Made by a program: the position numbers and the translations under genes
Origin: Candidatus Zixiibacteriota bacterium
GTDB taxonomy: Bacteria; Zixibacteria; MSB-5A5; JAUVRN01
Direction of reading: 5' to 3'
NCBI GenBank assembly: GCA_036745245.1
Contig: DAIOGN010000004.1
Coordinates: 1 to 48,471 of the forward strand
DNA length: 48,471 nucleotides
Shown: positions 4,157 through 43,915 of the stretch, in pieces
How positions within the stretch are numbered: position 1 is the first letter of the stretch
How the letters are laid out: every line of letters begins with the position of its first letter
The notes under the pieces: generated by a model
Told to the model about the DNA's origin: nothing
Seen by the model: the letters and a program-made list of their open reading frames with translations, nothing else
Databases searched by the model: none

Positions 4157-4211
4157 AGCAGGGCTCTTCCTCGACAGGCAGAGTGCAATATCGCGAAGGA
4201 CAGAAGCGGCG

Positions 4212-20648: not shown

Positions 20649-20650
20649 GA

Positions 20651-23600
20651 TCAATGCCCCTTCGGCGCAGCGTGACCCGACGATTCACCGGCATCCTTCG
20701 GCGCCGGCGGCCTGGCCCTGGTCAGGTACGTTTCCACCATGACGTACAGCATGGGGATGAGCAGCACGCCCAGGGCAGTGGCCACCAGGAGCCCTGCGAA
20801 TACCGCCAGGCCCATCACCTTGCGCGATTCCGCTCCGGCGCCGGCGGAGGTCACCAACGGCACCACGCCGAGGATGAACGCGAACGAGGTCATGAGAATC
20901 GGGCGCAGTCTCAGCTTGGCGGACTCGAGCGCCGCGTCCACCGCGCTGGCGCCGGCTTCGCGCTTCATTTTGGCGAATTCCACAATCAGAATGGCGTTTT
21001 TGGCCGACAGGCCGATCAACGTCACGAATCCGATCTGCGCAAACACGTTGTTCACGTAGCTGTCGGAGAAGAAACGCATGACCCACAGCCCCAGCATGGC
21101 GCCGAACAGCACGAACGGAGTGGAGAGCAACACGCTCAAAGGCAGGCTCCAGCTCTCGTACTGGGCGGACAGGATCAGGAACACAAACAGCAAGGCCGCC
21201 GCGAACACCACGGCCGCCGTGCCTGCGGCCTTGATCTCCTGGTACGACATGTTGGCCCAGTCATACGACCAGCCGGGCGGCAAGGTCGTGCTCGCTACCG
21301 CCTGCAGGGCTGCAAGCGCCTGCGTTGACGTGTACCCGGCGGCGGGCACCCCCGTGATCTCAGCCGATCGATACAGGTTGAAGCGGTTGGTGAACTCCGG
21401 TCCGGTGATAGGCCGCATGGTGACCAGCGCAGACAGGGGCACCATCGCGCCCGTGTTGCTGCGCACGAAGAACTGGCCCAGGTCCCAGATGTCATTGCGG
21501 TACTCCGCCTCGGCGGAGACGTACACTTTGTACACGCGGCCGAAGCGGTTGAAGTCGTTGATGTAGTTGGCTCCGAGCAACGTGCCGAGCGTGGTGTTCA
21601 CGTCGGCCAGGGAGGCGCCGGTCTTCAGCACCTTGTCGCGGTCTATGTCGGCGAACAACTGCGGCACCCCTGAGCGGTAGAACGACGCGATGCGACCGAT
21701 CTCGGGCCGTTTGCGGGCTTCGGCGATGAAGTTCTCGGTCTGCTCCTGGAGCTGCTGGGGCGTACCGCCGGACTGGTCCTGGATGAACATCGTAAAGCCA
21801 GCGCCTGTGCCCAGACCCTGAATGGCGGGCGGACCGAAGGCGTACACGATGGCCTCCGGGACGTCCTGCGCGAAACGCTTGTTCAACGTCTCGACCAACT
21901 CAAACGAGCGATCCTCGATGTTGGGTCGATCATGCCAGGGCTTCAGCGAAACAAAGAACGTGCAGAAGTTGGAGGCTACCGTGTTGGTCATGATGTTCAA
22001 ACCCACCACGGTGGTGTAATACGCGATCGCCTCCTCTCCGCTCAGGATGGCCTCCACCTGGCGCGAAACTGCGTCGGCTCGCTGCATCCCGCTGGCGTCG
22101 GGAAGCTGCACGCTGATCAGGAAGTAACCGTTGTCCTCCTCCGGCACGAACCCGCCCGGCACGATGCGGAACAGGCACACGATCCCCACCATGAGCACGG
22201 CGATGAAAATGAGGCTGCGTGCCATTTTGCGGATCAGGATGCCGGTGAACCCCACGTACCCGCCCGTGAAGCGGTCGAAATGGCGGTTGAACCATTTGTA
22301 GAAGGGATCCAGAAATGACTTCGACTGCCCCTTGGGCTTGAGCAGCATGGCCGCCAGGGCCGGGCTCAGCGTGAGGGCGTTGAACGCCGAGAAGAGCACC
22401 GAGATGGCGATGGTGATCGCGAACTGCTGGTAGAGTCGCCCCGTGATGCCGCTGATGAACGCCACAGGAACAAACACAGCCGCCAGGATGAGTGCGATGG
22501 CGATCACCGGCCCCGACACTTCCTTCATGGCCTGGAGCGTGGCTTCCTTGGGGTTCATGCCGTGTTCGATGTTGTGCATCACCGCTTCCACCACCACGAT
22601 GGCATCGTCCACCACGATCCCGATGGCGAGCACCATGCCCAAGAGCGACAGCGTGTTCACCGAAAAACCCAGAAGCGGAAACACGATGAACGTGGCCACG
22701 AGCGACACGGGCACGGTGAGCAGCGGAATGAGGGTGGCGCGCCAGTCCTGCAGGAAGATGAACACGACCAGGATCACCAGGAGCACGGCCTCGAAGAGCG
22801 TGTGAATGATCTCGGTGATGCCTTCCTCAATGGCGAGAGTGGTGTCGAGCGAGATCTCCTGCACGACATCGGGAGGAAAGCGCTCCGACAGGCGATGCAT
22901 CGTCTCCTTGATGCTTTCGGCCACCTCGAGGGCGTTGGACCCGGGAAGCTGATAGACCGCGATCACGGCGGCGGGACGGCCGTTGCTGCGGCCCACCTGG
23001 TTGTACAGGAGCGTGCCCAGCTCCGTACGGGCCACGTCGCGCATGCGCACCTGCGATCCGTCGGGATTGGTGCGGATGACGATGCGGCCGAACTCCTCAT
23101 CGTTCATGAGGCGTCCGGAGGTGCGCACCGTATAGGTGAACTCCGTCCCGGGAGGCGCCGGCGGACCGCCCACCTGCCCGGCCGGGGAGATCACGTTCTG
23201 ATCCTGCACCGCCTTGATGATGTCGGGCACCGTGAGGCCGAGGCCGGCCAGCCGATCGGGCTTGAGCCACAACCGCATGGCGTAGTCCGAACCGCCGAAC
23301 AGCTTGACGTCGCCCACGCCCTTGGTGCGTGAGAGCAGGTCGTTGATGTTGATGGCGGCGTAGTTGGAGAGGAAGTTGTTGTCGTAGGTGCCATCGGGTG
23401 AGGTGAGCGTTACCAGAAGCAGTGGGAACACCAGCGACTTCTTCACCGTCACGCCGTAATTCTTCACGGGCGTCGGGAGCGAAGCCTGCGCCTGCGACAC
23501 GCGGTTCTGCGTGAGCACGTTCGACATGTCCAGATTGGACCCCACGTCGAACGACACCTGAAGCGTCAGCGTGCCGTCGTTGGCGTTGATCGACTTCATG

Positions 23601-23830
23601 TAGATCATGTTTTCAACGCCGTTGACCTGCTGCTCCAGCGGCGTGGCCACCGACTGCTCCACGTCCACGGACGAAGCGCCCACGAAGGTGGTGGTCACGT
23701 TGATCATGGGAGGCACGATGTCGGGGAACTGCGCGATCGGCAGTCCCTTCATCACAATGAGGCCGACCAGCACCATGACGATGGAGATCACCATCGCCAC
23801 GATGGGCCGGTTGACGAAAAACTTCGCCAT
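20651..23830 (-). CDS. RND multidrug efflux permease (AcrB/HAE1 family)
   Basis: 1059 aa. MAKFFVNRPIVAMVISIVMVL.. N-terminus and 12-TM AcrB architecture. Confidence 0.95.
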   Translation of the reverse strand: MAKFFVNRPIVAMVISIVMVLVGLIVMKGLPIAQFPDIVPPMINVTTTFVGASSVDVEQSVATPLEQQVNGVENMIYMKSINANDGTLTLQVSFDVGSNLDMSNVLTQNRVSQAQASLPTPVKNYGVTVKKSLVFPLLLVTLTSPDGTYDNNFLSNYAAININDLLSRTKGVGDVKLFGGSDYAMRLWLKPDRLAGLGLTVPDIIKAVQDQNVISPAGQVGGPPAPPGTEFTYTVRTSGRLMNDEEFGRIVIRTNPDGSQVRMRDVARTELGTLLYNQVGRSNGRPAAVIAVYQLPGSNALEVAESIKETMHRLSERFPPDVVQEISLDTTLAIEEGITEIIHTLFEAVLLVILVVFIFLQDWRATLIPLLTVPVSLVATFIVFPLLGFSVNTLSLLGMVLAIGIVVDDAIVVVEAVMHNIEHGMNPKEATLQAMKEVSGPVIAIALILAAVFVPVAFISGITGRLYQQFAITIAISVLFSAFNALTLSPALAAMLLKPKGQSKSFLDPFYKWFNRHFDRFTGGYVGFTGILIRKMARSLIFIAVLMVGIVCLFRIVPGGFVPEEDNGYFLISVQLPDASGMQRADAVSRQVEAILSGEEAIAYYTTVVGLNIMTNTVASNFCTFFVSLKPWHDRPNIEDRSFELVETLNKRFAQDVPEAIVYAFGPPAIQGLGTGAGFTMFIQDQSGGTPQQLQEQTENFIAEARKRPEIGRIASFYRSGVPQLFADIDRDKVLKTGASLADVNTTLGTLLGANYINDFNRFGRVYKVYVSAEAEYRNDIWDLGQFFVRSNTGAMVPLSALVTMRPITGPEFTNRFNLYRSAEITGVPAAGYTSTQALAALQAVASTTLPPGWSYDWANMSYQEIKAAGTAAVVFAAALLFVFLILSAQYESWSLPLSVLLSTPFVLFGAMLGLWVMRFFSDSYVNNVFAQIGFVTLIGLSAKNAILIVEFAKMKREAGASAVDAALESAKLRLRPILMTSFAFILGVVPLVTSAGAGAESRKVMGLAVFAGLLVATALGVLLIPMLYVMVETYLTRARPPAPKDAGESSGHAAPKGH

Positions 23831-23833
23831 GCC

Positions 23834-25042
23834 TTACGTACCCTGGCCCGCGGTGTCGGATGGCGTCGCGGACTTCGTCGTATCGGGAGGCATTACGGAC
23901 TCGGTGGGGTAGGGCACCACGGTCGGCGCGACCAGCATTCCGGGTCGCACGCGCTGAAAGCCTTCCACGATCACCTTCTCGCCTGGCGAGACGCCCTTCT
24001 CCACCACCTGCACCTGGCCGGACTTGGGGCCGGTGACCAGTCCGCGGAACTGCGCCTTGTTCTCGGCGTCCACAGTGTACAGCACAAATTGTCCCTGGAT
24101 TTCGGAGATGGCGCGCTGAGGCACCACCACGGCGCTCTTGCGCCGGTCGAAGATGGCGCGCACGCGGGCGAATTGTCCCGGTCGCAAAACTCCTCCGGCA
24201 TTGGGGAAGGACGCTTCAATGAGCAGGGTGCCCGTGGCCGGGTCGATGCGGCGATCCGCGTACAACGCGAAACCCTTGTGCGGATACGTCGATCCGTCGG
24301 CGAGAATCAACTCCAGCTCGGCCTTGGTGGGGGCGATGCTGTCGTTGCCAGGTTCCGAAAGCCTTCGCGCCAGTTCGAGGTACTCATTCTCGGTGAGCGA
24401 AAAGCGCACGCGCACCGAATCCACGTTGGAGATGGTGTTGAGAATCACCGGATTGGGCGGCTGGCCCACAAAGTCGCCCGCGCGCGCGGCCGAAAGGCCG
24501 ATGGTGCCCGTGATGGGTGCGTGGATCGTGGCATAACTGAGGTCGGTCTGGGCGATCTTGAGCGCCGCGCTGTCGGCCACCACCTGGTCGCGGCGCGCGT
24601 TCCGCTCGGCCACCGCAATCTCCAGTTCGCGCTGACTCACGGCGCCGGCGGCCGCAAGCGGTTCGTACCGGTTGACATCCGCCTGCGAGCGTATCATGAG
24701 CGTGGTGGATTGGGCCACTTTGGCCTTTGCCTGCGCCACCTGCTGCTGGAGTTCTGTAGGGTCGATCGTGTAGAGCAGAGCGCCCTTTTCAATCTTGGCG
24801 CCTTCCTGGAAGTGAAGGCCTTCCACCCATCCCGCCACGCGGGCGCGGATTTCAATGTCCTGGGAGCCGAACATCTGACCCACCCACTCTTTATAGACAG
24901 GCACGTCCTGCAGGACGACCTCCACTACTTTCACGTCCAGCGGAGCGACGGGGGCCTGCTCCTCCGCGCACGCGGCCAACGTGGCGACGAGTGACACGGA
25001 CCAAACTGCACGCAGTCCCGCCTGCAGGACTTGCCTGTTCAT
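23834..25042 (-). CDS. RND efflux periplasmic adaptor (MFP) lipoprotein
   Basis: ATG at 25042 chosen (MNRQVLQ..LVATLAACAEE lipobox). Coiled-coil plus barrel-sandwich hybrid pattern. Stop lies 3 nt before the pump start. Confidence 0.85.
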   Translation of the reverse strand: MNRQVLQAGLRAVWSVSLVATLAACAEEQAPVAPLDVKVVEVVLQDVPVYKEWVGQMFGSQDIEIRARVAGWVEGLHFQEGAKIEKGALLYTIDPTELQQQVAQAKAKVAQSTTLMIRSQADVNRYEPLAAAGAVSQRELEIAVAERNARRDQVVADSAALKIAQTDLSYATIHAPITGTIGLSAARAGDFVGQPPNPVILNTISNVDSVRVRFSLTENEYLELARRLSEPGNDSIAPTKAELELILADGSTYPHKGFALYADRRIDPATGTLLIEASFPNAGGVLRPGQFARVRAIFDRRKSAVVVPQRAISEIQGQFVLYTVDAENKAQFRGLVTGPKSGQVQVVEKGVSPGEKVIVEGFQRVRPGMLVAPTVVPYPTESVMPPDTTKSATPSDTAGQGT

Positions 25043-25350
25043 ACACACTCTCCCTGCCTCTGATTCAGTGTCGCCGGCACAAGCCGTTGCGAAGCGCCGT
25101 TCCCGGGCGCGATTGGGAAATGCAAATCGCTGTCGTTCATATCTCACTTAGGGATGCTGTCTGCATGTGGATCGAACCTGAGGACGTACTCATTCCCACA
25201 CCCACCACTCGCCGCTCCATCCAAGGGCCGTACAGAACTCCGCCGGCTGCCACCAAAATAGCCGAAAGCCTTACAGGCCGAAAGTGTGGATTTGAACCAC
25301 GATTGCAGCTTGCCGCGTATGCCAGCGAGTGTGCAGCTTGAGTTTGGAGC

Positions 25351-26340
25351 ATGGGTATGAAAGCCATCGCGCATAGCCACTACGGCCCTCCCAGCGTGCT
25401 TCGAGTCGAAGAGAGGGATTCCCCTTCCATCGGCAGCGGTGATGTGCTGGTGAGAGTGAAGGCCGTGTCCCTGAATCCTCTCGACTGGCACTTCCTTCGG
25501 GGCGAACCGTTCCCCATTCGGCTTGCATTGGGATTGAGAAAGCCGGGTGCCCAACGCCTCGGTGTAGATTTTGCGGGGACGGTGGAGAAGGTCGGAGCAG
25601 GTGTAACACAATTCAAGCCGGGCGATTCTGTGTACGGAGGGAGACCTGGCGCTCTCGCCGAATACCTGAGCGTTCCCGAACGCATTGTGTTGTCCATGCC
25701 CGCCAATCTCACATTTCAGCAGGCGGCCGCCGTTCCGGTGGCAGCCCTCACGGCGCTGCAAGGATTGCGCGACAAGGGGAGACTGCAAGCCGGGCAGAGC
25801 GTGCTGGTGAACGGCGCTTCAGGAGGGGTGGGAACGTTCGCGATTCCCATAGCCAAACACCTCGGCGCCGAAGTCACCGGAGTGTGCAGCGGCAGGAATG
25901 TGGAGCTGGTCCGCTCCCTCGGCGCGGATTTTGTCGTGGACTACAGCCGTGAGGACTTCACCGTCGGCGGAGGGCGCTACGACGTGTTGCTGGATTGCGT
26001 GGGGAATCGCTCGTTGACCGATTGCAGGCGGGTGCTCAAGCCCACGGGCACGTACGTCATGGTGGGAGGTCCGGGCGGGCGCTGGCTCGGCCCATTGGCT
26101 CGATCCATTCGCATCGTCCTGTGGTCGCCGTTCGTACGTCAGCGGCTGGTCACGTTCATCACCAGCGCACGCAGGGACGACTTACAGTTCATCACAGGGC
26201 TGATCGAGGCCGGAAAGGTCGCGCCCGTGATCGATCGCTGTTACCCGCTGGAGGACGTATCGGATGCGTTCGCGTATCTTGAGGAAGGACATGCCCGGGG
26301 CAAGGTGGTGATCCGCCTCGATCCCGATTCGAGTTCCTGA
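25351..26340 (+). CDS. NAD(P)-dependent medium-chain dehydrogenase/reductase (quinone oxidoreductase-like)
   Basis: 329 aa. VLVRVKAVSLNPLDW.., GQSVLVNGASGGVGTFAI, ..GHARGKVVI. The second ATG at 25357 has better GGAG spacing. Confidence 0.85.
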   Translation: MGMKAIAHSHYGPPSVLRVEERDSPSIGSGDVLVRVKAVSLNPLDWHFLRGEPFPIRLALGLRKPGAQRLGVDFAGTVEKVGAGVTQFKPGDSVYGGRPGALAEYLSVPERIVLSMPANLTFQQAAAVPVAALTALQGLRDKGRLQAGQSVLVNGASGGVGTFAIPIAKHLGAEVTGVCSGRNVELVRSLGADFVVDYSREDFTVGGGRYDVLLDCVGNRSLTDCRRVLKPTGTYVMVGGPGGRWLGPLARSIRIVLWSPFVRQRLVTFITSARRDDLQFITGLIEAGKVAPVIDRCYPLEDVSDAFAYLEEGHARGKVVIRLDPDSSS

Positions 26341-26458: not shown

Positions 26459-26604
26459 CAGGCATGAAGAAAGAGCATATCGCCTTCTGACTGACTTGAC
26501 CCTGCAAGAGAGGAGCTTGCACTCGGTCGAGTTGTAGAGAACCCAAGAAATCAACCCATGAACCCAATGAGATGCAAATCTCTCTACCAAAGGAAATAGA
26601 AATC

Positions 26605-27675
26605 ATGAGATGTATCAATCCGTTCACGAGGTTACCAGGTGCGGCCGCAGTGGCCGTGCTTTGTTGCACGGCGTTCGTCGCCGGATGTGGAAGCGACGAG
26701 AACGTGGCTGGCCCGAATCCCACTCCCGATACGACGGCCCCCACCGTGTTATCCACCAACCCCATCAATGGCTCCACCGGCGTTGCGGTCATCAACGTGA
26801 CCTTCAGTGAGCCCATGGCGTCCGCCTCCGTTTCGGACGTGTCGTTTACCCTGACGGGCCCCGGGCTGACGCCCGTGGCGGGCGTGGTGACCTACGATGC
26901 CCCCAACAACCGGGCGTCGTTTGTGCCCTCCAGCGCCCTGACGGCGGCCACCTCGTACAAGGCCACCATCATGACCGCTGTCAAAGACCGAGCGGGCAAC
27001 GCTCTGGCCAACAACTATGTGTGGGATTTTGTGACCAATTTAGCTTCGACGATACAACCGCCGGAAGTGCTGGCATCCAGTGGCGGGTTCGCGGTCCTGG
27101 CCGGCGCCTCCATCACCAGCACGGGCATGACGCGGATCACCGGAGGAGTGGGGCTGAGCCCGGGCACATCCCTGACCGGCTTTCCGCCCGGCATCATCGT
27201 CGGCACGAAACACGTGGCCGATCCGGCAGCAGCTCAGGCCAAACTTGATCTGACCACAGCCTACAACGGCTCCGCGGGGAGGACTCTGAGTCCCGTGTCC
27301 GTGGCAGGCAACATCGGCGGGATGACGCTCCCGCCCGGACTTTACAAGTCCACCTCATCGCTCGAGATTTCGTCCGGAGATCTCACTCTCGACGGCATGG
27401 GGAACGCCAATGCGGTGTGGGTATTCCAGATCGCTTCGACCCTCACCACGACCTCCGGCCGCAAGGTGATTCTTGCCGGCGGTGCGAAGGCCAGCAACAT
27501 CTTCTGGCAGGTGGGTACATCGGCCACTCTGGGAACGACGTCTGTTTTCAAGGGGACCATCATGGCGGATCAGTCTATCACCATGAATACCGGTGCGACG
27601 CTGGAAGGACGCGTCCTTGCACGGACTGCATCGGTCACATTGAACGGCAACACCATCGTCGTTCCGGCCATCTAA
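26605..27675 (+). CDS. lipoprotein with Ig-like (SbsA/Big_5-like) domain and DUF3494 ice-binding-like domain
   Basis: Start MRCINPF..FVAGCGSDE (lipobox). DTTAPTVLSTNPINGSTGV.. Ig-like module. Then ..FAVLAGASITSTG.., NIFWQVGTSATLGT.., FKGTIMADQSITMNTGATLEGRVLA, typical of the DUF3494 beta-helix. Confidence 0.8.
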   Translation: MRCINPFTRLPGAAAVAVLCCTAFVAGCGSDENVAGPNPTPDTTAPTVLSTNPINGSTGVAVINVTFSEPMASASVSDVSFTLTGPGLTPVAGVVTYDAPNNRASFVPSSALTAATSYKATIMTAVKDRAGNALANNYVWDFVTNLASTIQPPEVLASSGGFAVLAGASITSTGMTRITGGVGLSPGTSLTGFPPGIIVGTKHVADPAAAQAKLDLTTAYNGSAGRTLSPVSVAGNIGGMTLPPGLYKSTSSLEISSGDLTLDGMGNANAVWVFQIASTLTTTSGRKVILAGGAKASNIFWQVGTSATLGTTSVFKGTIMADQSITMNTGATLEGRVLARTASVTLNGNTIVVPAI

Positions 27676-34129: not shown

Positions 34130-34177
34130 TAATTCGACTTATGTCGAAAGATCCGATTGCGTAGGAGGCCACCCGTC

Positions 34178-34990
34178 ATGCCGAAGTCCCGAACCGCACT
34201 AAAGACCCGAGGGGTACTAAAGACCCGAACCGCACTAGAGACCCGAACCGCACTAAAGACCCGAGCCGCACTAAAGACCCGAGTCGCACCGACGATCCGG
34301 GTGCTTTTGATAGAGGACAATCGCCTGCTACGCGAAGGCGTCACCGCCATGCTCAATGACCAGCCGGACATCAAGACCGTCTCGTCAGCCGGCAATGGAG
34401 ACGCGATGGAGAAGGCGAGAACGTTTAAGCCTCATGTAGTGTTGCTTGACCTGGGCCTGAGAAGCCAGAACAGCCTGAAGATTGCGGAGCACGTCAAGAG
34501 AGAGTTTCCGAAGTGCGAAGTGGTGCTGATGGACCTGATTCCCATACACAGCGAGGTGGTCGAGTTCGTGAAACTGGGCGTGTCGGGCTTTATCCTGAAG
34601 GACGCCACCATCGACGACTTCTTGCACACGATACGCTCGGTGGCTGAAGGCAAGAAGGTGCTGCCGCCGCTCCTCACCGAGACCCTGTTCTCTCACATCG
34701 TCAAGTACGCGCTTCAGACCGGGAAACACGATACCGTGCTCAGGGCGGTGAAACTGACCAGACGTGAGCAGGAAATCATAGGCCTGATTGCGAGAGGGAT
34801 GAGCAATAAGGAGATTTCCGGCGAGCTCAGCATTGCCGTCCATACCGTGAAGAGCCATGTCCACAACACGCTTGAGAAACTGGCTCTTCACACCCGCCTG
34901 GAATTAGCCAGCTTTGCCCTTAGACCAGATTCCAAGGTCCAGGCCGGTCTGCAGCGCCTCGATTCATCGCTCTCGACCCCTCTCTTGTAA
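34178..34990 (+). CDS. NarL/LuxR-family response regulator (REC + LuxR HTH) with N-terminal hexapeptide repeat extension
   Basis: ATG 34178 lies 9 nt after AGGAGG. REC motifs IEDN, VVLLDLGL, GFILKD. C-terminal LTRREQEIIGLIARGMSNKEISGELSIAVHTVKSHV. No histidine kinase nearby. Confidence 0.85.
   Translation: MPKSRTALKTRGVLKTRTALETRTALKTRAALKTRVAPTIRVLLIEDNRLLREGVTAMLNDQPDIKTVSSAGNGDAMEKARTFKPHVVLLDLGLRSQNSLKIAEHVKREFPKCEVVLMDLIPIHSEVVEFVKLGVSGFILKDATIDDFLHTIRSVAEGKKVLPPLLTETLFSHIVKYALQTGKHDTVLRAVKLTRREQEIIGLIARGMSNKEISGELSIAVHTVKSHVHNTLEKLALHTRLELASFALRPDSKVQAGLQRLDSSLSTPLL
34188..34295 (+). repeat. 18-bp tandem repeat x6 (last copy degenerate), in frame within the regulator N-terminus
   Basis: Units CCCGAACCGCACTAAAGA at 34188, 34206, 34224, 34242, 34260 and 34278. 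They encode (T/S)R(T/G/A)(A/V)L(K/E) x5. Confidence 0.9.
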
Positions 34991-36173: not shown

Positions 36174-36815
36174 ATGAACACGATTTGGTGGCTGCCCTTT
36201 TGGCCGCTGGTGCTCTTCATCGCATCCTGCAGCGACGGGTACACAGCCGTCCAGCAGGCCAGCACGACACGGGCCGAAGCCATGTGGAACACCACAGCCT
36301 ACGTCACGATGCTGAGGAATACGGCCATCTCCGTGACGCTCGCGGACTCCATCGACACGGATGTTCATCGGACAGGCACGGAGTTTCGAGCCACGCTGAC
36401 ACAGCCCATCGTCGTGGACCTGGACACCGTGTTCGCCGTCGGTGCCGGGGCCAGGGGCATTCTGAGCAGTGTGATCGAGTCCGGCGGACGCAGGTTCCGC
36501 GCCGAATTGCAATTTGGCCTCACGGCCCTCCAGAACTCCAGAGGGCAGTGGATCCGAATCGGTACCCACACGATCCAGGAGAGACGGGCCACAAGCACCA
36601 GCAAGAAGATCATTCTGGTGGGAGGTGGCGGCATCGTCGGTGGCATGGCGGGCACGGCCCCGGACTGGTATGGTAGTGCTGGGAGCGGTGCGAAACCCGG
36701 TGCCACCACCGGCCCGGATGTTCCATCTGCTCGACCCAGGCAGGGGATCTTTCATGGACCCGGTACAGAAATCGTCTTCTTTTCAAACGAATCGACGCGG
36801 ATTGCGCTGAGATAG
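36174..36815 (+). CDS. lipoprotein, paralogue of 28025-28657 with a degenerate Gly-zipper
   Basis: MNTIWWLPFWPLVLFIASC lipobox. The core VTMLRNTAISVTLADSIDTDV..GAGARGILSSVIESG is identical at 40/61 hand-aligned positions to the paralogue. Confidence 0.7.
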   Translation: MNTIWWLPFWPLVLFIASCSDGYTAVQQASTTRAEAMWNTTAYVTMLRNTAISVTLADSIDTDVHRTGTEFRATLTQPIVVDLDTVFAVGAGARGILSSVIESGGRRFRAELQFGLTALQNSRGQWIRIGTHTIQERRATSTSKKIILVGGGGIVGGMAGTAPDWYGSAGSGAKPGATTGPDVPSARPRQGIFHGPGTEIVFFSNESTRIALR

Positions 36816-37246
36816 CGCATGGTCGTGCGGCCCGGTGCTCGGAGTCGCCTGCACACTGCAGTGAGCCCTTGTTGATCCAGGCCGCGGTGGCTATTATCAC
36901 CCGCTACTCAGATCAATCGGCAGCGCCTCCGGTATAAATCCGGCAAAAAAAGTGGATTCAATTCAGCCTGGAGCACAACCGGCTGAATGGCAAGCCGGTA
37001 GCCGGGGCGGCCGGGGCCACGCGGCCCTCCAGCCAGGCAACCGCGATCACCACCGGGCGTAATCTTCATGGGGGGGTGAAACGCAAATGGACCCCTGAAC
37101 CCGACTTACGGGTTGGGCAAGGGGGCCATCGCACCGTATACTCCCGCCAGTTCACTGTGGACCATCACGACGATTCGGCGTCAAACCTGAACCGCATGCT
37201 GCGATGGTCGCGACTTGACAACCTGAACGTCGACAAGGAGTCTGAA

Positions 37247-37357
37247 ATGGGCGACAAGGGCGGCAAGAAAGACAAGCAGAAGGGTCAGAAGCAGAAGGAC
37301 AAAAAGCAGCAGGAAGAGAATAAGAAGAAACAGCAGAAGCAGCAGAAGACGCCGTAA
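37247..37357 (+). CDS. 36-aa highly basic K/Q-rich microprotein
   Basis: AAGGAG RBS 6 nt upstream. MGDKGGKKDKQKGQKQKDKKQQEENKKKQQKQQKTP. Followed directly by a terminator. Confidence 0.5.
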   Translation: MGDKGGKKDKQKGQKQKDKKQQEENKKKQQKQQKTP

Positions 37358-37361
37358 CCCG

Positions 37362-37394
37362 GAGGCCGCCTGAGCGCGGCCTCTCTGATTTCTT
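37362..37394 (+). terminator. Rho-independent terminator
   Basis: GAGGCCGC / GCGGCCTC stem with a 6-nt loop, followed by TCTGATTTCTT. Confidence 0.6.
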
Positions 37395-37499
37395 ACGACT
37401 CAAGTGGCTCATAGCGCTCAGGGAGCGCTATGACGCCGTCGAAGCCAGTGCGACATTCACGGGCCGCACGGCTGCCCTCGCACCAGAGTGCCGACCGCG

Positions 37500-38411
37500 T
37501 TACGCCGGCCGTCGATCGATTCGCAGCGGACGTCCGTCCACCACAGCGCGCAGCGCCCGGATGTGCGCAGGCGTAGTGCCGCAGCAACCGCCCACGATGC
37601 TCACGTCGCAGGCCAGAAGCTGTTGTGCATGACGGGCCATGGTGTCGGGCGTTTCGAGATACACCGCCGTATCGCCCTTCAGCACCGGAAGTCCCGCGTT
37701 GGGCTGCATCATGAGCGGCAAGCGCGTGTGCGTCTGAAACTCGCGTGCTACCGCCACCATCGATTCGCTGCCCAATCCGCAGTTGGAACCCAGAATATCT
37801 GCACCGTTGGCCGAAAGCGCCTGCACGGCCTCCTGCACGCCGGTGCCCATGATCGTGCGGAAGCCGGTGGGCGAGGGCTCGAAGGTTAGCGTCACGGCCA
37901 CCGGCATCGAAGCGTCGATTTCTCTGGCCGCGCGCAGGGCCAAAAGCGCCTCGGCAAGATCGGTCATGGTTTCGATTACGATCAGGTCGACACCTTCCGC
38001 GTACACGGAAGCCAGCTGACGCCGGAACGCCGCCAGTACAGCCTCTGGATCGGTGTCGCCGTATGGCTCCAGCAATCTTCCCGTGGGGCCGATAGAGGCG
38101 GCCACCAGGGTGGATCGCGACACGCCGGCGCGCGCGGCCTGCACCGCTGCGCGGTTAATCTCCTCCGTCCGACGGTCGAGACCCCAGTGAGAGAGTTTGA
38201 GCGGAGACGCACCAAACGTGTTGGCCTGCACGATGTGGGCGCCTGCCTCCGCATACAGCCGGGCAATCTCGGCGGGAACCTCCGGATGCTCTATGTTCAC
38301 CTGCTCCGGGCAGGCCCCCGGTAGAAGCCCGCGCTCCTGGAGCTGGGTGCCCATGGCGCCGTCGGAGATGAGACGCTCGCCTCTGGCCAGTCGCCCGCGG
38401 AGGCCACTCAT
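37500..38411 (-). CDS. stand-alone homocysteine S-methyltransferase domain protein (MetH N-terminal module-like)
   Basis: 303 aa. DGAMGTQL.., ..ANTFGAS.., Zn-ligand motifs ..GSNCG.. and ..GGCCGTTPAHI... Confidence 0.85.
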   Translation of the reverse strand: MSGLRGRLARGERLISDGAMGTQLQERGLLPGACPEQVNIEHPEVPAEIARLYAEAGAHIVQANTFGASPLKLSHWGLDRRTEEINRAAVQAARAGVSRSTLVAASIGPTGRLLEPYGDTDPEAVLAAFRRQLASVYAEGVDLIVIETMTDLAEALLALRAAREIDASMPVAVTLTFEPSPTGFRTIMGTGVQEAVQALSANGADILGSNCGLGSESMVAVAREFQTHTRLPLMMQPNAGLPVLKGDTAVYLETPDTMARHAQQLLACDVSIVGGCCGTTPAHIRALRAVVDGRPLRIDRRPA

Positions 38412-38412
38412 G

Positions 38413-39051
38413 TCAGCTCACGCCAAAGATGGACTTCACACAGTCCACGGCACTGGTGCCATCGAAGCAATAGGCATCGGCACCGATGTCTCGCGCGTAC
38501 TCCCTGGACAGCGGCGCACCACCCACGATGACACGGGTCTTTCCCTGCAGTTGTCGCTCACGAGCCAGCTCCACCACGCGACGCATGCCGGGCATGGTGG
38601 TGGTGAGCAGGGCCGACAACCCGATCACTCCTGCATTCGATTCAATGGCCGCCTGGATGAAACGTTCGGGAGGAACGTCCTTTCCCAGATCCACCACTTC
38701 GAACCCCGCTCCGCGCAGCATGATCGACACCAGGTTCTTGCCGATGTCGTGCATGTCGCCCTGCACGGTGCCCATGACGACGCGACCACGCGAGGGGATT
38801 CCGTCACGGATCATGAGCGGCTTGAGCAGATCCATGCCGGCGTACATGGCTTTGGCGGCCAGGAGCACGTCGGGCAGGTAGATCTCGTGAGACTTGAAGC
38901 GGGCCCCCACCACGTTCATGCCTGCGATCAGACCGGAGTCGAGAATCACTCTGGGCTCCACGCCTTCGGTGATCGCTGCCCGCGTGAGTTGGGCCACTCC
39001 CGGCGCATCGCCCTGTTGTAGTCGTTCTGCCAGTTGTGCCAGTACGGTCAT
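38413..39051 (-). CDS. corrinoid (cobalamin)-binding protein, MtgC/MttC/MetH B12-domain type
   Basis: 212 aa. N-terminal helical cap, then the DxHxxG motif (GDMHDIGKN) and ..SALLTTTM... Confidence 0.9.
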   Translation of the reverse strand: MTVLAQLAERLQQGDAPGVAQLTRAAITEGVEPRVILDSGLIAGMNVVGARFKSHEIYLPDVLLAAKAMYAGMDLLKPLMIRDGIPSRGRVVMGTVQGDMHDIGKNLVSIMLRGAGFEVVDLGKDVPPERFIQAAIESNAGVIGLSALLTTTMPGMRRVVELARERQLQGKTRVIVGGAPLSREYARDIGADAYCFDGTSAVDCVKSIFGVS

Positions 39052-39785
39052 GGCTGCTCCCGCATGTCTTGAGTGTCATGGAGCCCGCCGAATATGGCGG
39101 CTATGCGTTCCCGGCAGGACCGCGTTTGGCAGTCGCCGCAAAACGGAAAATCGTCGGCAAACAGAAACGCGCCGCGCCCTGCTGCCACAATCACGCCGCT
39201 CACCGACTTCAGAGGGTACATCAGGCACGACGCCGAGAGCGAAATGCCGATGTCGGCCGGCTGCAGGTGGGAGAAGAGATTCCGCTGGCCGCATGTCTGC
39301 CAGCCGCAATAGCCCGGGCTGAAGCGCATGACCCCCATGTCGGTGGTGAGCTCGCCTGAGGCGCGCAGATGCTCGACGTATCTCCATTCCAATTCAGAGG
39401 CGGCCAGCTCGGCGCCCTCCGAGGCCGCTGCATCCAGCGCCGCACCCAGCGCGAAGTCGGCCGCTTGAAAGCGAGAGTCGATTTCATCCCGGATCGGTTC
39501 ACCCAGAGTCACGGCGAAAAGCGCAAGCGAGCGGGCACGCGGGTAGATCTGTCCCAGGGGCGTGAACCCTGCGTTCTGGCCGGCGTACAGCTTTTCGAAT
39601 TCGTCCAGGCCAATCGGGTTCCACACTCCCAGAGGCTGGACGCGCTTCCGATAGAGGGCGATGGCCTCCACGGCGAGCCTGAGGTGCCGGCCCGAATTTG
39701 GCGCGCCTGCCGCGCCCAGGGCGGTGAGCACTTGCTCCGGCTCGGGCGTCACCTGGCTCAGTGGAAACTCCACGCGGGTGCTCAC
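39048..39785 (-). CDS. MetH activation (AdoMet-dependent reactivation) domain-like protein with C-terminal CX2CX4C
   Basis: 245 aa, GTG start in a GTGA overlap. ..MRFSPGYCGW.. resembles the RxxPGY motif of the MetH reactivation domain. C-terminal FCGDCQTRSC. Confidence 0.7.
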   Translation of the reverse strand: MSTRVEFPLSQVTPEPEQVLTALGAAGAPNSGRHLRLAVEAIALYRKRVQPLGVWNPIGLDEFEKLYAGQNAGFTPLGQIYPRARSLALFAVTLGEPIRDEIDSRFQAADFALGAALDAAASEGAELAASELEWRYVEHLRASGELTTDMGVMRFSPGYCGWQTCGQRNLFSHLQPADIGISLSASCLMYPLKSVSGVIVAAGRGAFLFADDFPFCGDCQTRSCRERIAAIFGGLHDTQDMREQP

Positions 39786-41329
39786 AGGTCCACTCCGGGT
39801 AATGTGGACAGCCCATGCGTGTGAGCTTCGCTCGTCATGAGCCGGATCAATTCCCTCCGCACATGCTCCGGTAGACGAGGCGGGCTGTGCTGTTCAAGGG
39901 CGCGCCGTACTTCCTCGTGCGCTCGCCGGATGAGCGACCGGCTCCCCTCTTCCTTCCAGCGTGACTGGTTGGCCCGGTCGATGACCGGCCGCGGGAATTG
40001 GATTTCACTCTTCAGGTATTTGCGCGTGTGCTCGGAGATCAGCAGATGTCCCTCGGCCAGCAGCTCCTGGAAGCGCGGCAGCGCCGGAAAATCTTCGTGC
40101 GGCGTGATGCCCTGCGTCATGCGCAGTACGGATCCGCAGATTTCATTGTCGCACACGAGTTTTTCGAGAGAGAAGCAACTCTCGAAATCGAGCATGCCGG
40201 GGCCCGAGATGTGGTTGATTCCTGACAGGGCGGCCAGCACGGCGCCCATGGCCGTCTCCAGCCCGGCCTGCGCATCGAGCGACTTGGCATCGGAGAGCGC
40301 GATGTAGGCCTGCGTGGGGAGCCCCAGCTCCTTGCCGATTTCGTTGCAGGCGCAGTCGATCATCATGGTTTCGATGGCGCCCATGGGCGTGGTTTCGTAC
40401 CGGATGTCGAACACCGCGGGCGAGCCGCCCCACAGCACTGGCGTGCCGGGACGAGCCAGCTGGCTGATCACCAGGCCGCTCAACGTCTCGGCGGTGTGCT
40501 GCACGAGAGATCCCACCAGCGTGACCGGCGCCATGAAGCCCGACAGCGGCATGGAGATGAACTCCACGGGAATACCGTACCGCGCACAGTCCACCACATT
40601 CTGCGACGTGACATGGCTCCACTTGAGCGGCGAAGTGGGACAGCAGGAGAACACCGTGAGCGGCTTTTCGGCAAGCGCCCCCTCCGACCCGCGCACGGCC
40701 ACCTGGAGGTCCTTCATCACCGTGAACGATTCCACGGTGAATGTGCCGGTCACTACGGGCTTTTCGCAGTTGAGCAGCGAAAGAAACAGCCGGTAGCTGT
40801 CGGACATGCGCTCCGGCACATCGGCCGGAATCATGGCTGTGGACTGCGAAGAAATGTTGTCCATGGCCGCCATGAGTCGGGCATACTCGATGTAGTCCGC
40901 CGAGGTGGGACGACGGATCGCCTGAGTCTGACTGTCCAGGATGTTGATCGCGGCCGAGCCTGGCGTGAAATGCACGTTGTAGCCGGACAGATCCTCGGCA
41001 GGCTGGCCTAACGAGTCGTACAGGTGGAAAGAGCGCGGCGCCGACTTCAGGGCCCGATCGATGAGTTGCTCGGTAAAGTGCACACGTCCCGAGGCGCGGT
41101 CGTGCCGGGCGCCGGCATCGGTCAAGAGTGTCAGCACTCCCGGGTTGTGCACTTCCACTCCCAGGGTGCAGATCAGATCGCGGCCTTCGGCGATGATGCG
41201 ATCGCGAAGGTCGTCTGATAGAAATCGCAACGTGGGTCTCACCGGCCAGCCCTTGCGGGATCCAGGCAGACCCGCACTGCGAGAGTGTTCATGGCAGAAA
41301 TGTCCAGCTTGGCAGACGGGAGCGGCCAT
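39782..41329 (-). CDS. MttB-superfamily (trimethylamine methyltransferase family) protein, non-pyrrolysine type
   Basis: 515-aa uninterrupted ORF (no in-frame TAG). ..RFLSDDLRDRIIAEGRDLICTLGVEVHNPGVLTLL.. is a typical MttB N-terminus. Start could be GTG 41242. Confidence 0.85.
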   Translation of the reverse strand: MAAPVCQAGHFCHEHSRSAGLPGSRKGWPVRPTLRFLSDDLRDRIIAEGRDLICTLGVEVHNPGVLTLLTDAGARHDRASGRVHFTEQLIDRALKSAPRSFHLYDSLGQPAEDLSGYNVHFTPGSAAINILDSQTQAIRRPTSADYIEYARLMAAMDNISSQSTAMIPADVPERMSDSYRLFLSLLNCEKPVVTGTFTVESFTVMKDLQVAVRGSEGALAEKPLTVFSCCPTSPLKWSHVTSQNVVDCARYGIPVEFISMPLSGFMAPVTLVGSLVQHTAETLSGLVISQLARPGTPVLWGGSPAVFDIRYETTPMGAIETMMIDCACNEIGKELGLPTQAYIALSDAKSLDAQAGLETAMGAVLAALSGINHISGPGMLDFESCFSLEKLVCDNEICGSVLRMTQGITPHEDFPALPRFQELLAEGHLLISEHTRKYLKSEIQFPRPVIDRANQSRWKEEGSRSLIRRAHEEVRRALEQHSPPRLPEHVRRELIRLMTSEAHTHGLSTLPGVDL

Positions 41330-41516
41330 GGAAGCCGACTCCGCGGCTACTGTACCCTTCTTGACACACGACTACGGACTTGTAATGACCGGGGCAGTAT
41401 AATATCTTACCCATTCATCAAGTATTAGTTTTTTCAGCCTGGGCCTGTAATACAGAAGGGACCCCGTCACCGGTTCGCTGCCGTCAAGCCGCGCCGGGAG
41501 ACCCCACAGGCTCGGA

Positions 41517-42086
41517 GTGTTTCAGCGCATGCGATGCATCTTGAAGTTCGTAGTGCTCGCGATCACGTGGACCACCGCCTGCCCGGTGTGGGGCCAGGTG
41601 GAGCATGTCGATATGTCGAAGTCGGAGGGCACGGCGGCGGCCCTCTCGATACTCGGAACCATCGTTCCGGTGGCCGCCGGGAAACTGATCGCCGGTAATC
41701 CGGAGTCGGGTACAGAACCCCGGGCGCTCGTCGGCGGCTCCATCGCCCTCTGCGGCGCGATCTTTGGTCCAGCCCTGGGCTACATCTACGCAGGGAACGA
41801 ACATGCCATCGGCCTGGGTGCTACGCTGCGCATGACGGGTCTGACAAGCGGCGTCGTGGCCAAGCTGTTGTACGATAACTATCAGACCTCGGGGACGGGC
41901 AGCTGGGTGGACGATGCGCTTGCCGTAAGCGGAGGCGTGCTGTTCGTGGGAGGCACGCTCCTGGACTGGATTCGCGCACCAGCGCTTCTCCGGAGCCAGA
42001 AGGAGTCTGCGCGTCCAGCTCGAGTCCACCGGATCGAGGTGCACCCGACGGTCTCCGGAGTGTGTGTGCTGGTGAGAGTGGGATGA
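41517..42086 (+). CDS. hypothetical membrane protein with signal peptide
   Basis: High GC3 in the plus frame. The plus ORF is preferred over the overlapping minus ORF 41484-42155, which is Arg/His-rich. ..GPALGYIYAGNEH.. plus Gly-rich helices. Probable start ATG 41529. Confidence 0.6.
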   Translation: MFQRMRCILKFVVLAITWTTACPVWGQVEHVDMSKSEGTAAALSILGTIVPVAAGKLIAGNPESGTEPRALVGGSIALCGAIFGPALGYIYAGNEHAIGLGATLRMTGLTSGVVAKLLYDNYQTSGTGSWVDDALAVSGGVLFVGGTLLDWIRAPALLRSQKESARPARVHRIEVHPTVSGVCVLVRVG

Positions 42087-42161
42087 CGGTGCCTCATGAT
42101 GGCGGCCTGGGTGTGAATGTGTCACGACACGACGCCCACGAGGACTGAGCCACAATCGGTC

Positions 42162-42419
42162 TCAGCTCGGCCGTGAGGCACATCTCAAAGAGCAGCGGCA
42201 TAGAGCAAATAGCACCCAAGTCTCGAAGTAGGCTTCGAAGTCTCCGTGACTTTCGAGCTTCAGCCAGGCAGGCAGGTTTACAAAGAAGCCCGACAAATCT
42301 CCCCCGGAATCTTCCACCCATGCCAGGTCGTCCTTCGTTGACGTAAGAAATACCAACGGCGCGTTCAAATGTCTGGACAACTGTGTTGTAGTATTAATCG
42401 CTATCGCATGCCTGGGCAT
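42162..42419 (-). CDS. possible SMI1/KNR4 (SUKH)-like fragment
   Basis: DDLAWVEDSGGDLSGFFVN..SHGDFEAYFETWV resembles the C-terminal half of SUKH immunity proteins. Only 85 aa, intermediate GC3, in an A/T-richer patch. Confidence 0.25.
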   Translation of the reverse strand: MPRHAIAINTTTQLSRHLNAPLVFLTSTKDDLAWVEDSGGDLSGFFVNLPAWLKLESHGDFEAYFETWVLFALCRCSLRCASRPS

Positions 42420-42547
42420 GTAGGCACAGAGTTTTCGGTGTCCGGAGGCACAAAATTATCTGCGCGCATTGGCATGAAGCAGGTCACACCCTATTTTGCA
42501 GTTCGTCTGCTGACAAAACCAAATCACATTGCTCGCGGGGGTGCTCT

Positions 42548-43915
42548 ATGGGGCGCGCATTGGTCGGCTTCTGTGTCAGCCTGGCTCTCACGAGCACGGC
42601 TGCAGCACAGAACCATCTGTTAATTGCCTGGAATGATCTGGGCATGCACTGCAGCAACAAGGACTTTTCCACGCTTGCCGTATTGCCTCCGTACAACAAC
42701 GTGGTGGCACAGGTCATTCGCGTGGGGGATTCGCTTCAGCTGCCGGTCGTGGTGACGGCGGGTCTGCGTGTGACCTACGAGATTCCCGGCAATACGTACT
42801 CGGTGGGGAAAACCAACTTCTGGGACTTCGAAGACAAGCTTTTTGGAGTCACCCTGTCTCCCAATGTGGGCCTCACCGGGCACGGGCTGTCCGGGGAGAT
42901 GACAGCCGTTTCAAACGAGTTCGTGATCACCGGCATTCCCATTACGCCCTTCACCGATGCCGACCTGCTCCATGAAGACCCCTTTCATCTGGGGTGGTTT
43001 TCGGCGTACGACGCGTCGTCGCAATGGCTGGCCGGCACACACGCGGTCGTGCCTGTATCCAACGAAATCAACTGCCTCGGCGCCGGGTGCCACGCGAGTG
43101 AGCAGGGCATTCTTAATCAGCACGCCGAAGAAGCGGGATTCGATCCCGCCAACAAGCCGATCCTGTGCGCCAGCTGTCATGCCTCGGCCGCCCTGGGCGC
43201 TCCCGGTTTACCCGGAGTGCCGTCGCTCTCCGAGGCGGTGCACAAACACCACGCCGAGCGCACGAACGATTGCTACACGTGTCATCCCGGACCCAATACG
43301 CAGTGCCTCCGAGACGTGATGTCGACTGAGCATGGCATGGTCTGTCAGTCGTGCCATGGGTCGGTATTGGAGGTGGGCCAGAGCATCGATGCCGGTCGGA
43401 AGCCGTGGCTGGAAGAGCCCTCATGTGGAGCGGCTGCTTGCCATGGATCCCGCTACGCCGAAGAGCCGGGTCAGCTGTATCGCAACTCCCGTGGGCATGG
43501 AGGACTCTTCTGCAGCGCCTGCCATGGCTCGCCACATGCCATCGTGCCGAGCCGCGAGGATCGCGACAATGTTCAGAATGTATCGTTGCAGGGACACCCG
43601 GGAACCTTGCACGAGTGCGAGGTGTGCCATGGCTTCATTCCGTCTGGCCCGGGTCCACACGGACTGACCGCTTGTCCTGTGCGCGTAGACGGCGATGCCA
43701 ACTCCTCGGGAACGGTCACGTCGGCGGACGTCATTTTGCTTGTGAATTACGTTTTCAAGAGTGGCGCGTCGCCAGAACCGTGCAGCGCCAATGGAAACGT
43801 AAATTGTGACGCCCAGGTAAGCTCAGCTGACATCATCTCCCTGGTGAACTTCGTGTTCAAGGGCGGACCGGCACCGTGTGATATTTGCACCGACAGCCCG
43901 CTCGCGTGCCTGTAG
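42548..43915 (+). CDS. secreted multihaem c-type cytochrome with C-terminal dockerin-like module
   Basis: Signal peptide present. Five CXXCH (CASCH, CYTCH, CQSCH, CSACH, CEVCH) plus two CX4CH (CLGAGCH, CGAAACH). C-terminal duplicated DGDANSSGTVTSADVILLVNYVFKSG / NGNVNCDAQVSSADIISLVNFVFKGG. Confidence 0.8.
   Translation: MGRALVGFCVSLALTSTAAAQNHLLIAWNDLGMHCSNKDFSTLAVLPPYNNVVAQVIRVGDSLQLPVVVTAGLRVTYEIPGNTYSVGKTNFWDFEDKLFGVTLSPNVGLTGHGLSGEMTAVSNEFVITGIPITPFTDADLLHEDPFHLGWFSAYDASSQWLAGTHAVVPVSNEINCLGAGCHASEQGILNQHAEEAGFDPANKPILCASCHASAALGAPGLPGVPSLSEAVHKHHAERTNDCYTCHPGPNTQCLRDVMSTEHGMVCQSCHGSVLEVGQSIDAGRKPWLEEPSCGAAACHGSRYAEEPGQLYRNSRGHGGLFCSACHGSPHAIVPSREDRDNVQNVSLQGHPGTLHECEVCHGFIPSGPGPHGLTACPVRVDGDANSSGTVTSADVILLVNYVFKSGASPEPCSANGNVNCDAQVSSADIISLVNFVFKGGPAPCDICTDSPLACL

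Follow-up and report, generated by a model that had tools for sequence, protein, structure and literature searches.

A cassette of four genes is described here from the minus strand (positions 37500-41329) of a contig of Candidatus Zixiibacteriota, DAIOGN010000004.1; the whole stretch of 48 kb that was analysed is referred to as the window. The four genes rather probably encode a self-contained, four-subunit, corrinoid-dependent methionine synthase that uses a methyl donor other than folate. In the order of transcription, they code for a member of the MttB superfamily lacking pyrrolysine (Pyl), the candidate for the first methyltransferase (MT1); a stand-alone reactivation protein of the MetH type; a corrinoid protein; and a homocysteine (Hcy) S-methyltransferase, the candidate for the second methyltransferase (MT2). 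MT1 would move a methyl group from a small methylated donor to the Co(I) of the corrinoid protein, and MT2, a MetH-type Zn enzyme, would pass it from methyl-Co(III) to Zn-activated homocysteine, yielding methionine. If the cofactor becomes oxidised to Co(II), the reactivation protein might restore it by reductive methylation with S-adenosylmethionine (AdoMet); a metal or Fe-S centre, possibly bound by the four invariant cysteines of this protein, would handle the electron. Each of the four families is represented, its catalytic motifs intact, and the conserved order, the translational coupling, and the invariance of the catalytic motifs (in 64-77 genomes) argue that the four proteins work together.

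A preliminary description of this locus, made from the DNA alone, had presented it as MetH with the folate module swapped for an MttB-family enzyme acting on a betaine-like quaternary amine. The swap stands as the best available functional reading of the cassette, but the quaternary-amine specificity fails at the active site of MT1. The arrangement itself is not new. According to Williams et al. 2022 (Environ Microbiol 24:2576; PMC9324843), exactly this cluster occurs in metagenome-assembled genomes (MAGs) of Candidatus Electryoneota and in diverse bacteria, and a novel corrinoid-dependent methionine synthesis with an unknown donor was hypothesised for it. The same hypothesis was thus reached independently, which supports the function proposed here. 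The cautious suggestion of novelty in the preliminary description is accordingly correct in that no biochemical characterisation was found in the literature searched, and outdated in that both the cluster and the hypothesis were published in 2022. The window cassette is a further instance of a described, biochemically uncharacterised type. What is added is a distinctive S/Q/L/S/E pocket in MT1, a four-cysteine signature in the reactivation protein, the chimeric origin of the parts, and a census reaching hundreds of species, with no conserved neighbours.

The four genes and their products

The genes are tightly packed (Table 1). The MTTB and reactivation genes share a GTGA overlap (39782-39785), the reactivation and corrinoid genes an ATGA overlap (39048-39051), and the corrinoid and Hcy genes are separated, on the coordinates of their open reading frames (ORFs), by the single unpaired base 38412; junctions of 4, 4, and 1 nucleotides imply co-translation. 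Coordinates and junctions agree with those of the preliminary description, whose four domain assignments also held when the proteins were searched against the Pfam hidden Markov models MTTB, Met_synt_B12, B12-binding, and S-methyl_trans. In NCBIfam, none of the four reaches a named equivalog. The true start of the MTTB gene is probably GTG 41242 (giving 486 aa) rather than ATG 41329, since the homologues are 485-486 aa long and the alignments begin near residue 31; the sequence AAGGG precedes this GTG.

Table 1. Genes of the cassette, with the Rfam match lying inside the first of them. Identity is that to the window protein across loci of other genomes.
Feature	Position	Strand	Remarks	Identity
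MttB-superfamily (PF06253) MT1 candidate, without pyrrolysine	39782-41329	minus	ORF of 515 aa from ATG 41329	61-72%
Predicted stand-alone MetH-type (TM0269-like) reactivation protein	39048-39785	minus	245 aa, GTG start	35-50%
Corrinoid (cobalamin-binding) protein	38413-39051	minus	212 aa; B12-binding_2 cap and Rossmann-type B12-binding domain	56-70%
MetH-type homocysteine S-methyltransferase, MT2 candidate	37500-38411	minus	303 aa	45-59%
PYLIS_3 match (Rfam) within the MTTB gene	40198-40297	minus	33.1 bits (gathering score 38), E-value 4.4e-4

MT1 matches the TIM-barrel profile of the MttB superfamily (PF06253) over its full length (2e-72, 244 bits, profile positions 29-489 of 500). Its score against TIGR02369, the model of pyrrolysine-containing MttB, is 361.6 bits and remains below the cut-off of 525. 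Among solved structures, it is at a roughly equal distance from Methanosarcina MttB (7xcl, 189.5 bits) and Desulfitobacterium MtgB (2qne, 179 bits). Among the four proteins it is the most constrained one, as its identity to homologues from other phyla indicates.

The pocket of MT1 was compared in a MAFFT alignment of the window protein, 74 cassette homologues, and solved references. It is known that MtgB contacts glycine betaine through Y97 and F356 (cation-pi) and through R312 and H348 (carboxylate), and that R312 is kept in every member of known function, the substrates of which are all acidic quaternary amines (PMC13080624); the phosphocholine enzyme MthB obeys the same rule (PMC12155760). 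In the window protein, these four positions are occupied by Ser125 in place of Y97 (Ser in 73/74 homologues), Glu383 in place of F356 (Glu in 73/74), Gln340 in place of R312 (Gln in all 74), and Ser375 in place of H348 (Ser in 71/74), so that the betaine-binding motif of MtgB is lacking. Two of these positions also correspond to residues that activate Pyl and are fully conserved in true MttB (PMC9842639), namely Gly110 (here Ser125) and Tyr364 (here Ser375), and the position of Pyl334 itself is Leu345, encoded by CTC (Leu in 72 and Met in 2 of the 74). By these residues, as by the TIGR02369 score, MT1 falls outside MttB; Met249 of MttB is retained as Met260, in 74/74. The alignment thus points to a near-invariant pocket peculiar to the cassette clade, fitting neither betaine nor Pyl-bound trimethylamine. 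Because of these active-site residues, the donor is predicted not to be a carboxylated or phosphorylated quaternary amine of the betaine type, and the betaine-like donor proposed in the preliminary description is not borne out.

The possibility that the MTTB gene encodes Pyl was rejected, in agreement with that description, given that no in-frame TAG exists; the stop codon noticed in one of the other loci (L048) lies upstream of the MTTB start. The gene nevertheless contains a match to the Rfam model PYLIS_3, which begins exactly at the codon equivalent to Pyl334 (Table 1). The search was permissive on positions 36500-42600 of the window and used gathering scores on 18 cassette loci, in 11 of which the same model exceeds that score (L005, L014, L019, L028, L042, L045, L050, L051, L060, L080, and L088). 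In the absence of an in-frame TAG, the match looks like coding-sequence homology to mttB and not like a pyrrolysine signal; PYLIS_3 matches, taken on their own, yield false pyrrolysine calls.

A related problem concerns the names under which cassette MT1 proteins are deposited. P0124, P0142, P0147, and others are called trimethylamine--corrinoid protein Co-methyltransferase, despite the lack of pyrrolysine and of its partner residues, which is probably a systematic misannotation extending to thousands of metagenomic proteins. It might have consequences, since MttB in Zixibacteria has been taken as evidence for trimethylamine-driven mercury methylation (PMC12484752); if that MttB is the cassette protein, the inference rests on a doubtful annotation.

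The reactivation protein matches Met_synt_B12 (PF02965) with 33.8 bits (cut-off 25), over profile positions 123-249 of 273 only. A profile built on 31 homologues retrieved the Thermotoga protein TM0269 (1J6R, 1.5e-8) and then the activation domain of E. coli MetH (1MSK, 0.004). An AlphaFold model (pLDDT 89.8) submitted to Foldseek also found 1J6R (E 1.9e-11, TM 0.79), followed only by MetH reactivation domains. Pfam, profile, and model search therefore confirm the stand-alone MetH-type reactivation domain that had been recognised at this locus, and they indicate that the protein has the MetH activation fold, with the stand-alone TM0269 as its closest solved relative. In the AdoMet motif R-x-x-P-G-Y, the residues PGY, together with the Ser before them (SPGY), are invariant and the preceding Arg is common, not invariant. 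On the basis of predicted fold and motif, it may be considered an AdoMet-dependent member of the TM0269-like type. Four cysteines are invariant, both in the 31 sequences of the profile and in a set of 77: C160, within SPGYCGW, and C216-x2-C219-x4-C224, which sits in a C-terminal tail beyond the region aligned to TM0269. Their pattern suggests a Zn or Fe-S site. No literature on these four cysteines was found. In a protein collection clustered at 90%, the relatives of the stand-alone reactivation-like protein number over 1,300 at E <= 0.001.

The corrinoid protein contains the domains B12-binding_2 and B12-binding (Pfam, 5.1e-30 and 6.5e-21). The DxHxxG motif, already noticed in the preliminary description, reads GDMHDIG in the translation (D99-x-H101-x-x-G104) and is invariant in 74 homologues. 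The best NCBIfam match is MtgC_2 (206 bits, below cut-off), and the comparison with solved structures gave 187 bits for the Moorella protein 1Y80, 142 for MttC, and 105 for the B12 domain of MetH. By sequence, this protein is closer to the methylotrophic corrinoid proteins than to MetH.

The Hcy protein matches S-methyl_trans (PF02574) with an E-value of 2.5e-67. Its translation contains the motifs SNCG and GGCCGTTP, so that the Zn motifs attributed to it are both present with all three Zn cysteines (C211, C276, and C277), which are invariant in 66-68 homologues. Among solved structures, the best score is that of Thermotoga MetH (166 bits), followed by other MetH Hcy domains (144-160), betaine:homocysteine methyltransferase (BHMT, 75), and the homocysteine methyltransferase (HMT) using AdoMet or S-methylmethionine (67). 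In NCBIfam, the N-terminal domain of YitJ comes first, then BHMT and then the MetH models, all below cut-off. The scores against solved structures place the candidate MT2 with the MetH type and not with the BHMT or S-methylmethionine types.

Considered together, these affinities do not support "disassembled MetH" as an evolutionary description of the cassette, since its corrinoid protein is nearer to the methylotrophic type and its reactivation protein to the stand-alone TM0269. The origin of the parts is chimeric: the corrinoid protein is of the methylotroph type, MT2 of the MetH type, and the reactivase of the TM0269 type.

Distribution of the cassette and its surroundings in other genomes

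The gene-neighbourhood census that the preliminary description had called for was carried out on one genome per GTDB species. At least 600 stretches matched a pattern, and at least 587 of them encode a relative; the best 80 of these loci, all from MAGs, were compared by tblastn with the four window proteins. In 64 of the 80, the MTTB, reactivation, corrinoid, and Hcy genes follow one another in this order on one strand (median span 3.7 kb). Of the remaining loci, ten run off the end of a contig and six others are incomplete, so that the cassette is complete in 64 of the 70 evaluable loci, an arrangement far beyond chance. The best 80 loci come from at least a dozen phylum-level lineages; they carry the labels Zixibacteria, Ignavibacteria, Bacteroidota, WOR-3, Gemmatimonadota, Acidobacteriota (Thermoanaerobaculia, Aminicenantes, and Vicinamibacterales), Planctomycetota/Phycisphaerae, Eisenbacteria, Fidelibacterota, Cloacimonadota, TA06, Stahlbacteria, and Armatimonadota.

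The order of the four families is the same on long contigs (one of 3.84 Mb, one of an Acidobacteria MAG, and one of a Zixibacteria MAG), with flanks that differ each time. Next to the 64 complete loci, the 110 nearest ORFs match 177 Pfam families, the commonest of which, GNAT, occurs five times. The 25 most recurrent flanking families of these loci (a list reaching down to two members) include no Pterin_bind, URO-D, or transporter family, and no recurrent neighbour hinting at the donor was found in the flanks of the 64 loci. The differing flanks imply that the cassette is self-contained and forms a unit that is either mobile or retained independently.

In three genomes (L058, 8714-10483; L047, 585-2117; L061, 2416-5735), one or two ORFs of 435-625 aa break up the cassette by lying between its reactivation and corrinoid genes; these ORFs belong to no Pfam family, save for one weak beta-helix match. 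No informative domains were found in or around the atypical loci L047, L054, L057, L058, L061, L068, L076, and L077.

Function of the cassette: known systems and alternative explanations

The closest match to the window cassette is the Electryoneota cluster, from which it shows no difference in kind (PMC9324843): both combine a non-Pyl MttB/MtgB homologue and an Hcy S-methyltransferase with a corrinoid protein and an activation protein that binds AdoMet. The MttB homologue is assigned there to an uncharacterised clade, closer to MttB than to MtgB. The paper gives no biochemical test, and its available text contains no active-site analysis and no four-cysteine motif. The account of folate-independent methionine synthases by Price et al. 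2021 does not cover the cassette.

The modules for Hcy (Zn), B12 (DxHxxG), and AdoMet-type reactivation are those of MetH and of its two-gene form in Thermotoga (TM0268/TM0269), here all as separate polypeptides. Unlike those enzymes, the cassette has an MttB-family TIM barrel in place of the pterin-binding module, a corrinoid protein of the MtxC type, and a reactivase with four invariant cysteines. The combination of an MttB-superfamily MT1, an MtxC-type corrinoid protein, and an MT2 is shared with the MtgBCA, MtpBCA, MtcBCA, MtyBCA, and MthBCA systems of Desulfitobacterium and Eubacterium; in these, however, MT1 keeps R312 and the aromatic cage residues, MT2 is a pterin-binding methyl-corrinoid:tetrahydrofolate (THF) methyltransferase, and the activases are ATP-dependent and of the RamA type. 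MtgBCDE of Ruegeria pomeroyi, Phaeobacter inhibens, and Sinorhizobium meliloti (PMC12478193) likewise includes an MttB-family MT1, a corrinoid protein, and a stand-alone PF02574 protein proposed to share the corrinoid, and links the demethylation of a methylated amine to methionine synthesis. The genetics of Ruegeria (Mausz et al. 2025; PMC12478193) showed that a single MtgC works with the MttB-family methyltransferase for glycine betaine as well as with a split methionine synthase, in which MtgE is the Hcy subunit; this genetic support for a corrinoid protein common to an MttB-family enzyme and an Hcy methyltransferase strengthens the function proposed here. MtgBCDE differs from the cassette in needing the pterin-binding MtgD, in being reactivated by RamA and DUF1638 proteins, in having its genes scattered in Ruegeria, with mtgE usually not beside mtgBCD, and in the action of MtgB on glycine betaine. 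The cassette, for its part, is one tight operon with reactivation by PF02965, no MtgD at the locus, and no betaine-binding residues.

Folate independence, as far as the locus is concerned, agrees with the domain content. The pterin-binding methyl-THF module of MetH (PF00809) is absent from the four cassette proteins, and neither Pterin_bind nor URO-D was found by Pfam in the 29 other plausible ORFs of the window, so that the earlier statement that the locus holds no folate or coenzyme M module is upheld for these 48 kb. The same scan gave no RamA-type activase and no betaine transporter; RamA and DUF1638 reactivation genes and MtgD are missing from the window and do not recur in the cassette flanks. 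The absence of a linked transporter or product-catabolism gene and the very high conservation of MT1 suggest one common, widely available donor. Simple protonated methylamines held by the invariant Glu, or another non-acidic N-methyl compound, would be suitable; a methyl-pterin is less likely.

A few observations weigh against a folate-independent methionine synthase. The absence of pterin-binding domains covers the 48 kb of the window, and an unlinked pterin-binding MT2 or MtgD elsewhere in the genome is possible. Neither a SAM, a cobalamin, nor any other riboswitch was found by Rfam at positions 36500-42600 or in the 18 cassette loci, so that nothing ties the regulation of the genes to methionine, and the MTTB gene was found in no RNA run in an expression search. 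The Electryoneota MAGs with the cluster also encode full-length MetH (PMC9324843), which implies that the cassette is not needed there as the only methionine synthase. Lastly, the literature search found no biochemical or genetic test of this cassette.

Other explanations concern in the first place the donor. It is rather doubtful, but worth considering as a special case of the proposed synthase, that MT1 is a methylamine enzyme that does without pyrrolysine and acts on trimethylamine, dimethylamine, monomethylamine, or another non-acidic N-methyl compound, whose protonated amine would be kept in place by the invariant Glu together with small polar residues instead of Pyl. MT1 is slightly nearer to true MttB than to MtgB (189.5 vs 179 bits, and 361 bits with TIGR02369), as is the clade according to Williams et al. 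(PMC9324843); moreover, the mttB PYLIS_3 model is matched in most loci by the coding sequence that follows the Pyl-equivalent codon, Met249 is kept as M260, and the aromatic F356 of MtgB has given way to Glu383. Yet Pyl, Gly110, and Tyr364 of real MttB (PMC9842639) have become Leu, Ser, and Ser, no characterised Pyl-free enzyme of the family uses simple methylamines, and the role ascribed to Glu383 is purely inferential. A donor such as glycine betaine, proline betaine, carnitine, or gamma-butyrobetaine, which would turn the cassette into a cobalamin-dependent betaine:homocysteine methyltransferase, is what precedent would indicate, all characterised non-Pyl enzymes of the superfamily using such substrates (PMC13080624; PMC12155760); the best NCBIfam match of the corrinoid protein, albeit below cut-off, is MtgC, and Ruegeria and Sinorhizobium show linkage of MtgB, MtgC, and MtgE (PMC12478193). 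The (near-)invariant Ser, Gln, Ser, and Glu found in the 74 homologues at the positions of Y97, R312, H348, and F356, including the Gln at R312, which all characterised members acting on acidic quaternary amines keep (PMC13080624), make this donor unlikely; no betaine transporter and no dimethylglycine or sarcosine catabolic gene recurs beside the cassette, and the host environment is groundwater and freshwater sediment.

The housekeeping-like distribution of the cassette, free of linked transporter or catabolic genes, and the 61-72% identity of MT1 across phyla would also be expected if MT1 used a universal intracellular one-carbon carrier, i.e., methyl-THF or another methyl-pterin, the cassette then being a split MetH with a non-homologous folate module. 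The TIM barrel of MttB is indeed a structural relative of MeTr and of the folate domains of MetH (PMC9842639). This explanation seems quite improbable, as no PF06253 member is known to bind pterins, the complete MetH present in genomes with the cluster (PMC9324843) would make a second folate-dependent enzyme redundant, and no pterin-binding signature was seen in MT1, although no test was aimed at one. We regard as very unlikely that the Hcy protein works alone, on AdoMet, S-methylmethionine, or betaine, while the MttB and corrinoid pair feeds an unlinked THF methyltransferase and the co-location reflects shared regulation. PF02574 does include corrinoid-independent enzymes (MmuM/YagD, BHMT, and the YitJ N-domain), the best NCBIfam match of the Hcy protein is the YitJ-type model, and in Ruegeria the methyl groups of MtgB go mainly to THF via an unlinked MtgD (PMC12478193). 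Nonetheless, the Hcy protein is much nearer to the MetH Hcy domains than to BHMT or S-methylmethionine-type HMT, the order corrinoid-then-Hcy (with a 1-nt gap here) is kept in 64 loci, and a MetH-type reactivation protein is part of the same operon.

Returning to the corrinoid-dependent synthase with a non-folate donor, a more ambitious statement would join all its elements: a further major class of methionine synthase, cobalamin-dependent and folate-independent, with a non-betaine donor (simple methylamines, for instance, which the invariant Glu/Ser/Gln pocket would activate in the absence of pyrrolysine), an AdoMet-dependent reactivase with a four-cysteine metal or Fe-S centre, and a distribution over hundreds of uncultured species in a dozen or more phyla. 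In its entirety, this is put forward as tentative. If the proposed function is correct, many bacteria of sediment, groundwater, and the sea, among them Zixibacteria, Ignavibacteria, WOR-3, Gemmatimonadota, Acidobacteriota, and Planctomycetota, would convert homocysteine to methionine with a methyl group taken straight from an environmental or cellular compound, bypassing the folate cycle, by a route additional to MetH, MetE, the core-MetE/Mes families, and BHMT. The known cobalamin demand of anoxic habitats would be wider, and a widespread error in the annotation of trimethylamine methyltransferases, whose labels may already feed ecological inference, would be corrected. The identity of the donor is directly testable, with an MT1 that is 61-72% identical across phyla and has a pocket differing from those of MttB and MtgB.

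Surroundings of the cassette in the window

The four genes are flanked by unrelated genes on the opposite strand. A scan for promoters and terminators gave nothing beyond shuffled expectation, and the DNA runs containing the MTTB gene come from groundwater and freshwater sediment. Convergent with the cassette is an ORF of 93 aa (37076-37357, plus strand), the tail of which is rich in lysine and glutamine and which has short tandem repeats. It belongs to no family, although the matching ENA contig (L001) has a gene call for it, and it is directly followed by a hairpin and then a T-run (37361-37384).

Among the other genes, those at 2030-8858 (minus strand) encode a prolyl oligopeptidase (S9), an aldehyde dehydrogenase, a DHDPS-family protein, a FAD-dependent DAO, and a proline-racemase-family protein, and look like a catabolic cluster for hydroxyproline or proline peptides. 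More ordinary sets are a TonB-dependent receptor with a CarboxypepD_reg N-terminal domain followed by a DUF4249 protein (12424-15658, plus strand) and an RND efflux operon comprising OEP, AcrB, and an HlyD-type adaptor (19137-25788, minus strand). MgtE, an M48 peptidase, GH130, a glycosyltransferase, a sigma-factor-like protein, and a beta-propeller protein are also encoded. A secreted-type protein (26572-27675, plus strand) combines a bacterial Ig-like Big_5 domain with an ice-binding-like domain (PF11999, 1.9e-65). The ORF at 34157-34990 encodes a LuxR/GerE-type response regulator, whose N-terminus contains a hexapeptide repeat (approximately KTRAAL) specified by an 18-bp tandem repeat (34184-34289, plus strand; 5.9 copies, 85% matching). 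An unusual pairing is found at 42548-43915 (plus strand), where a protein of 455 aa has several CxxCH-like haem motifs, with weak cytochrome c7/c3 matches, and a C-terminal dockerin-like domain.

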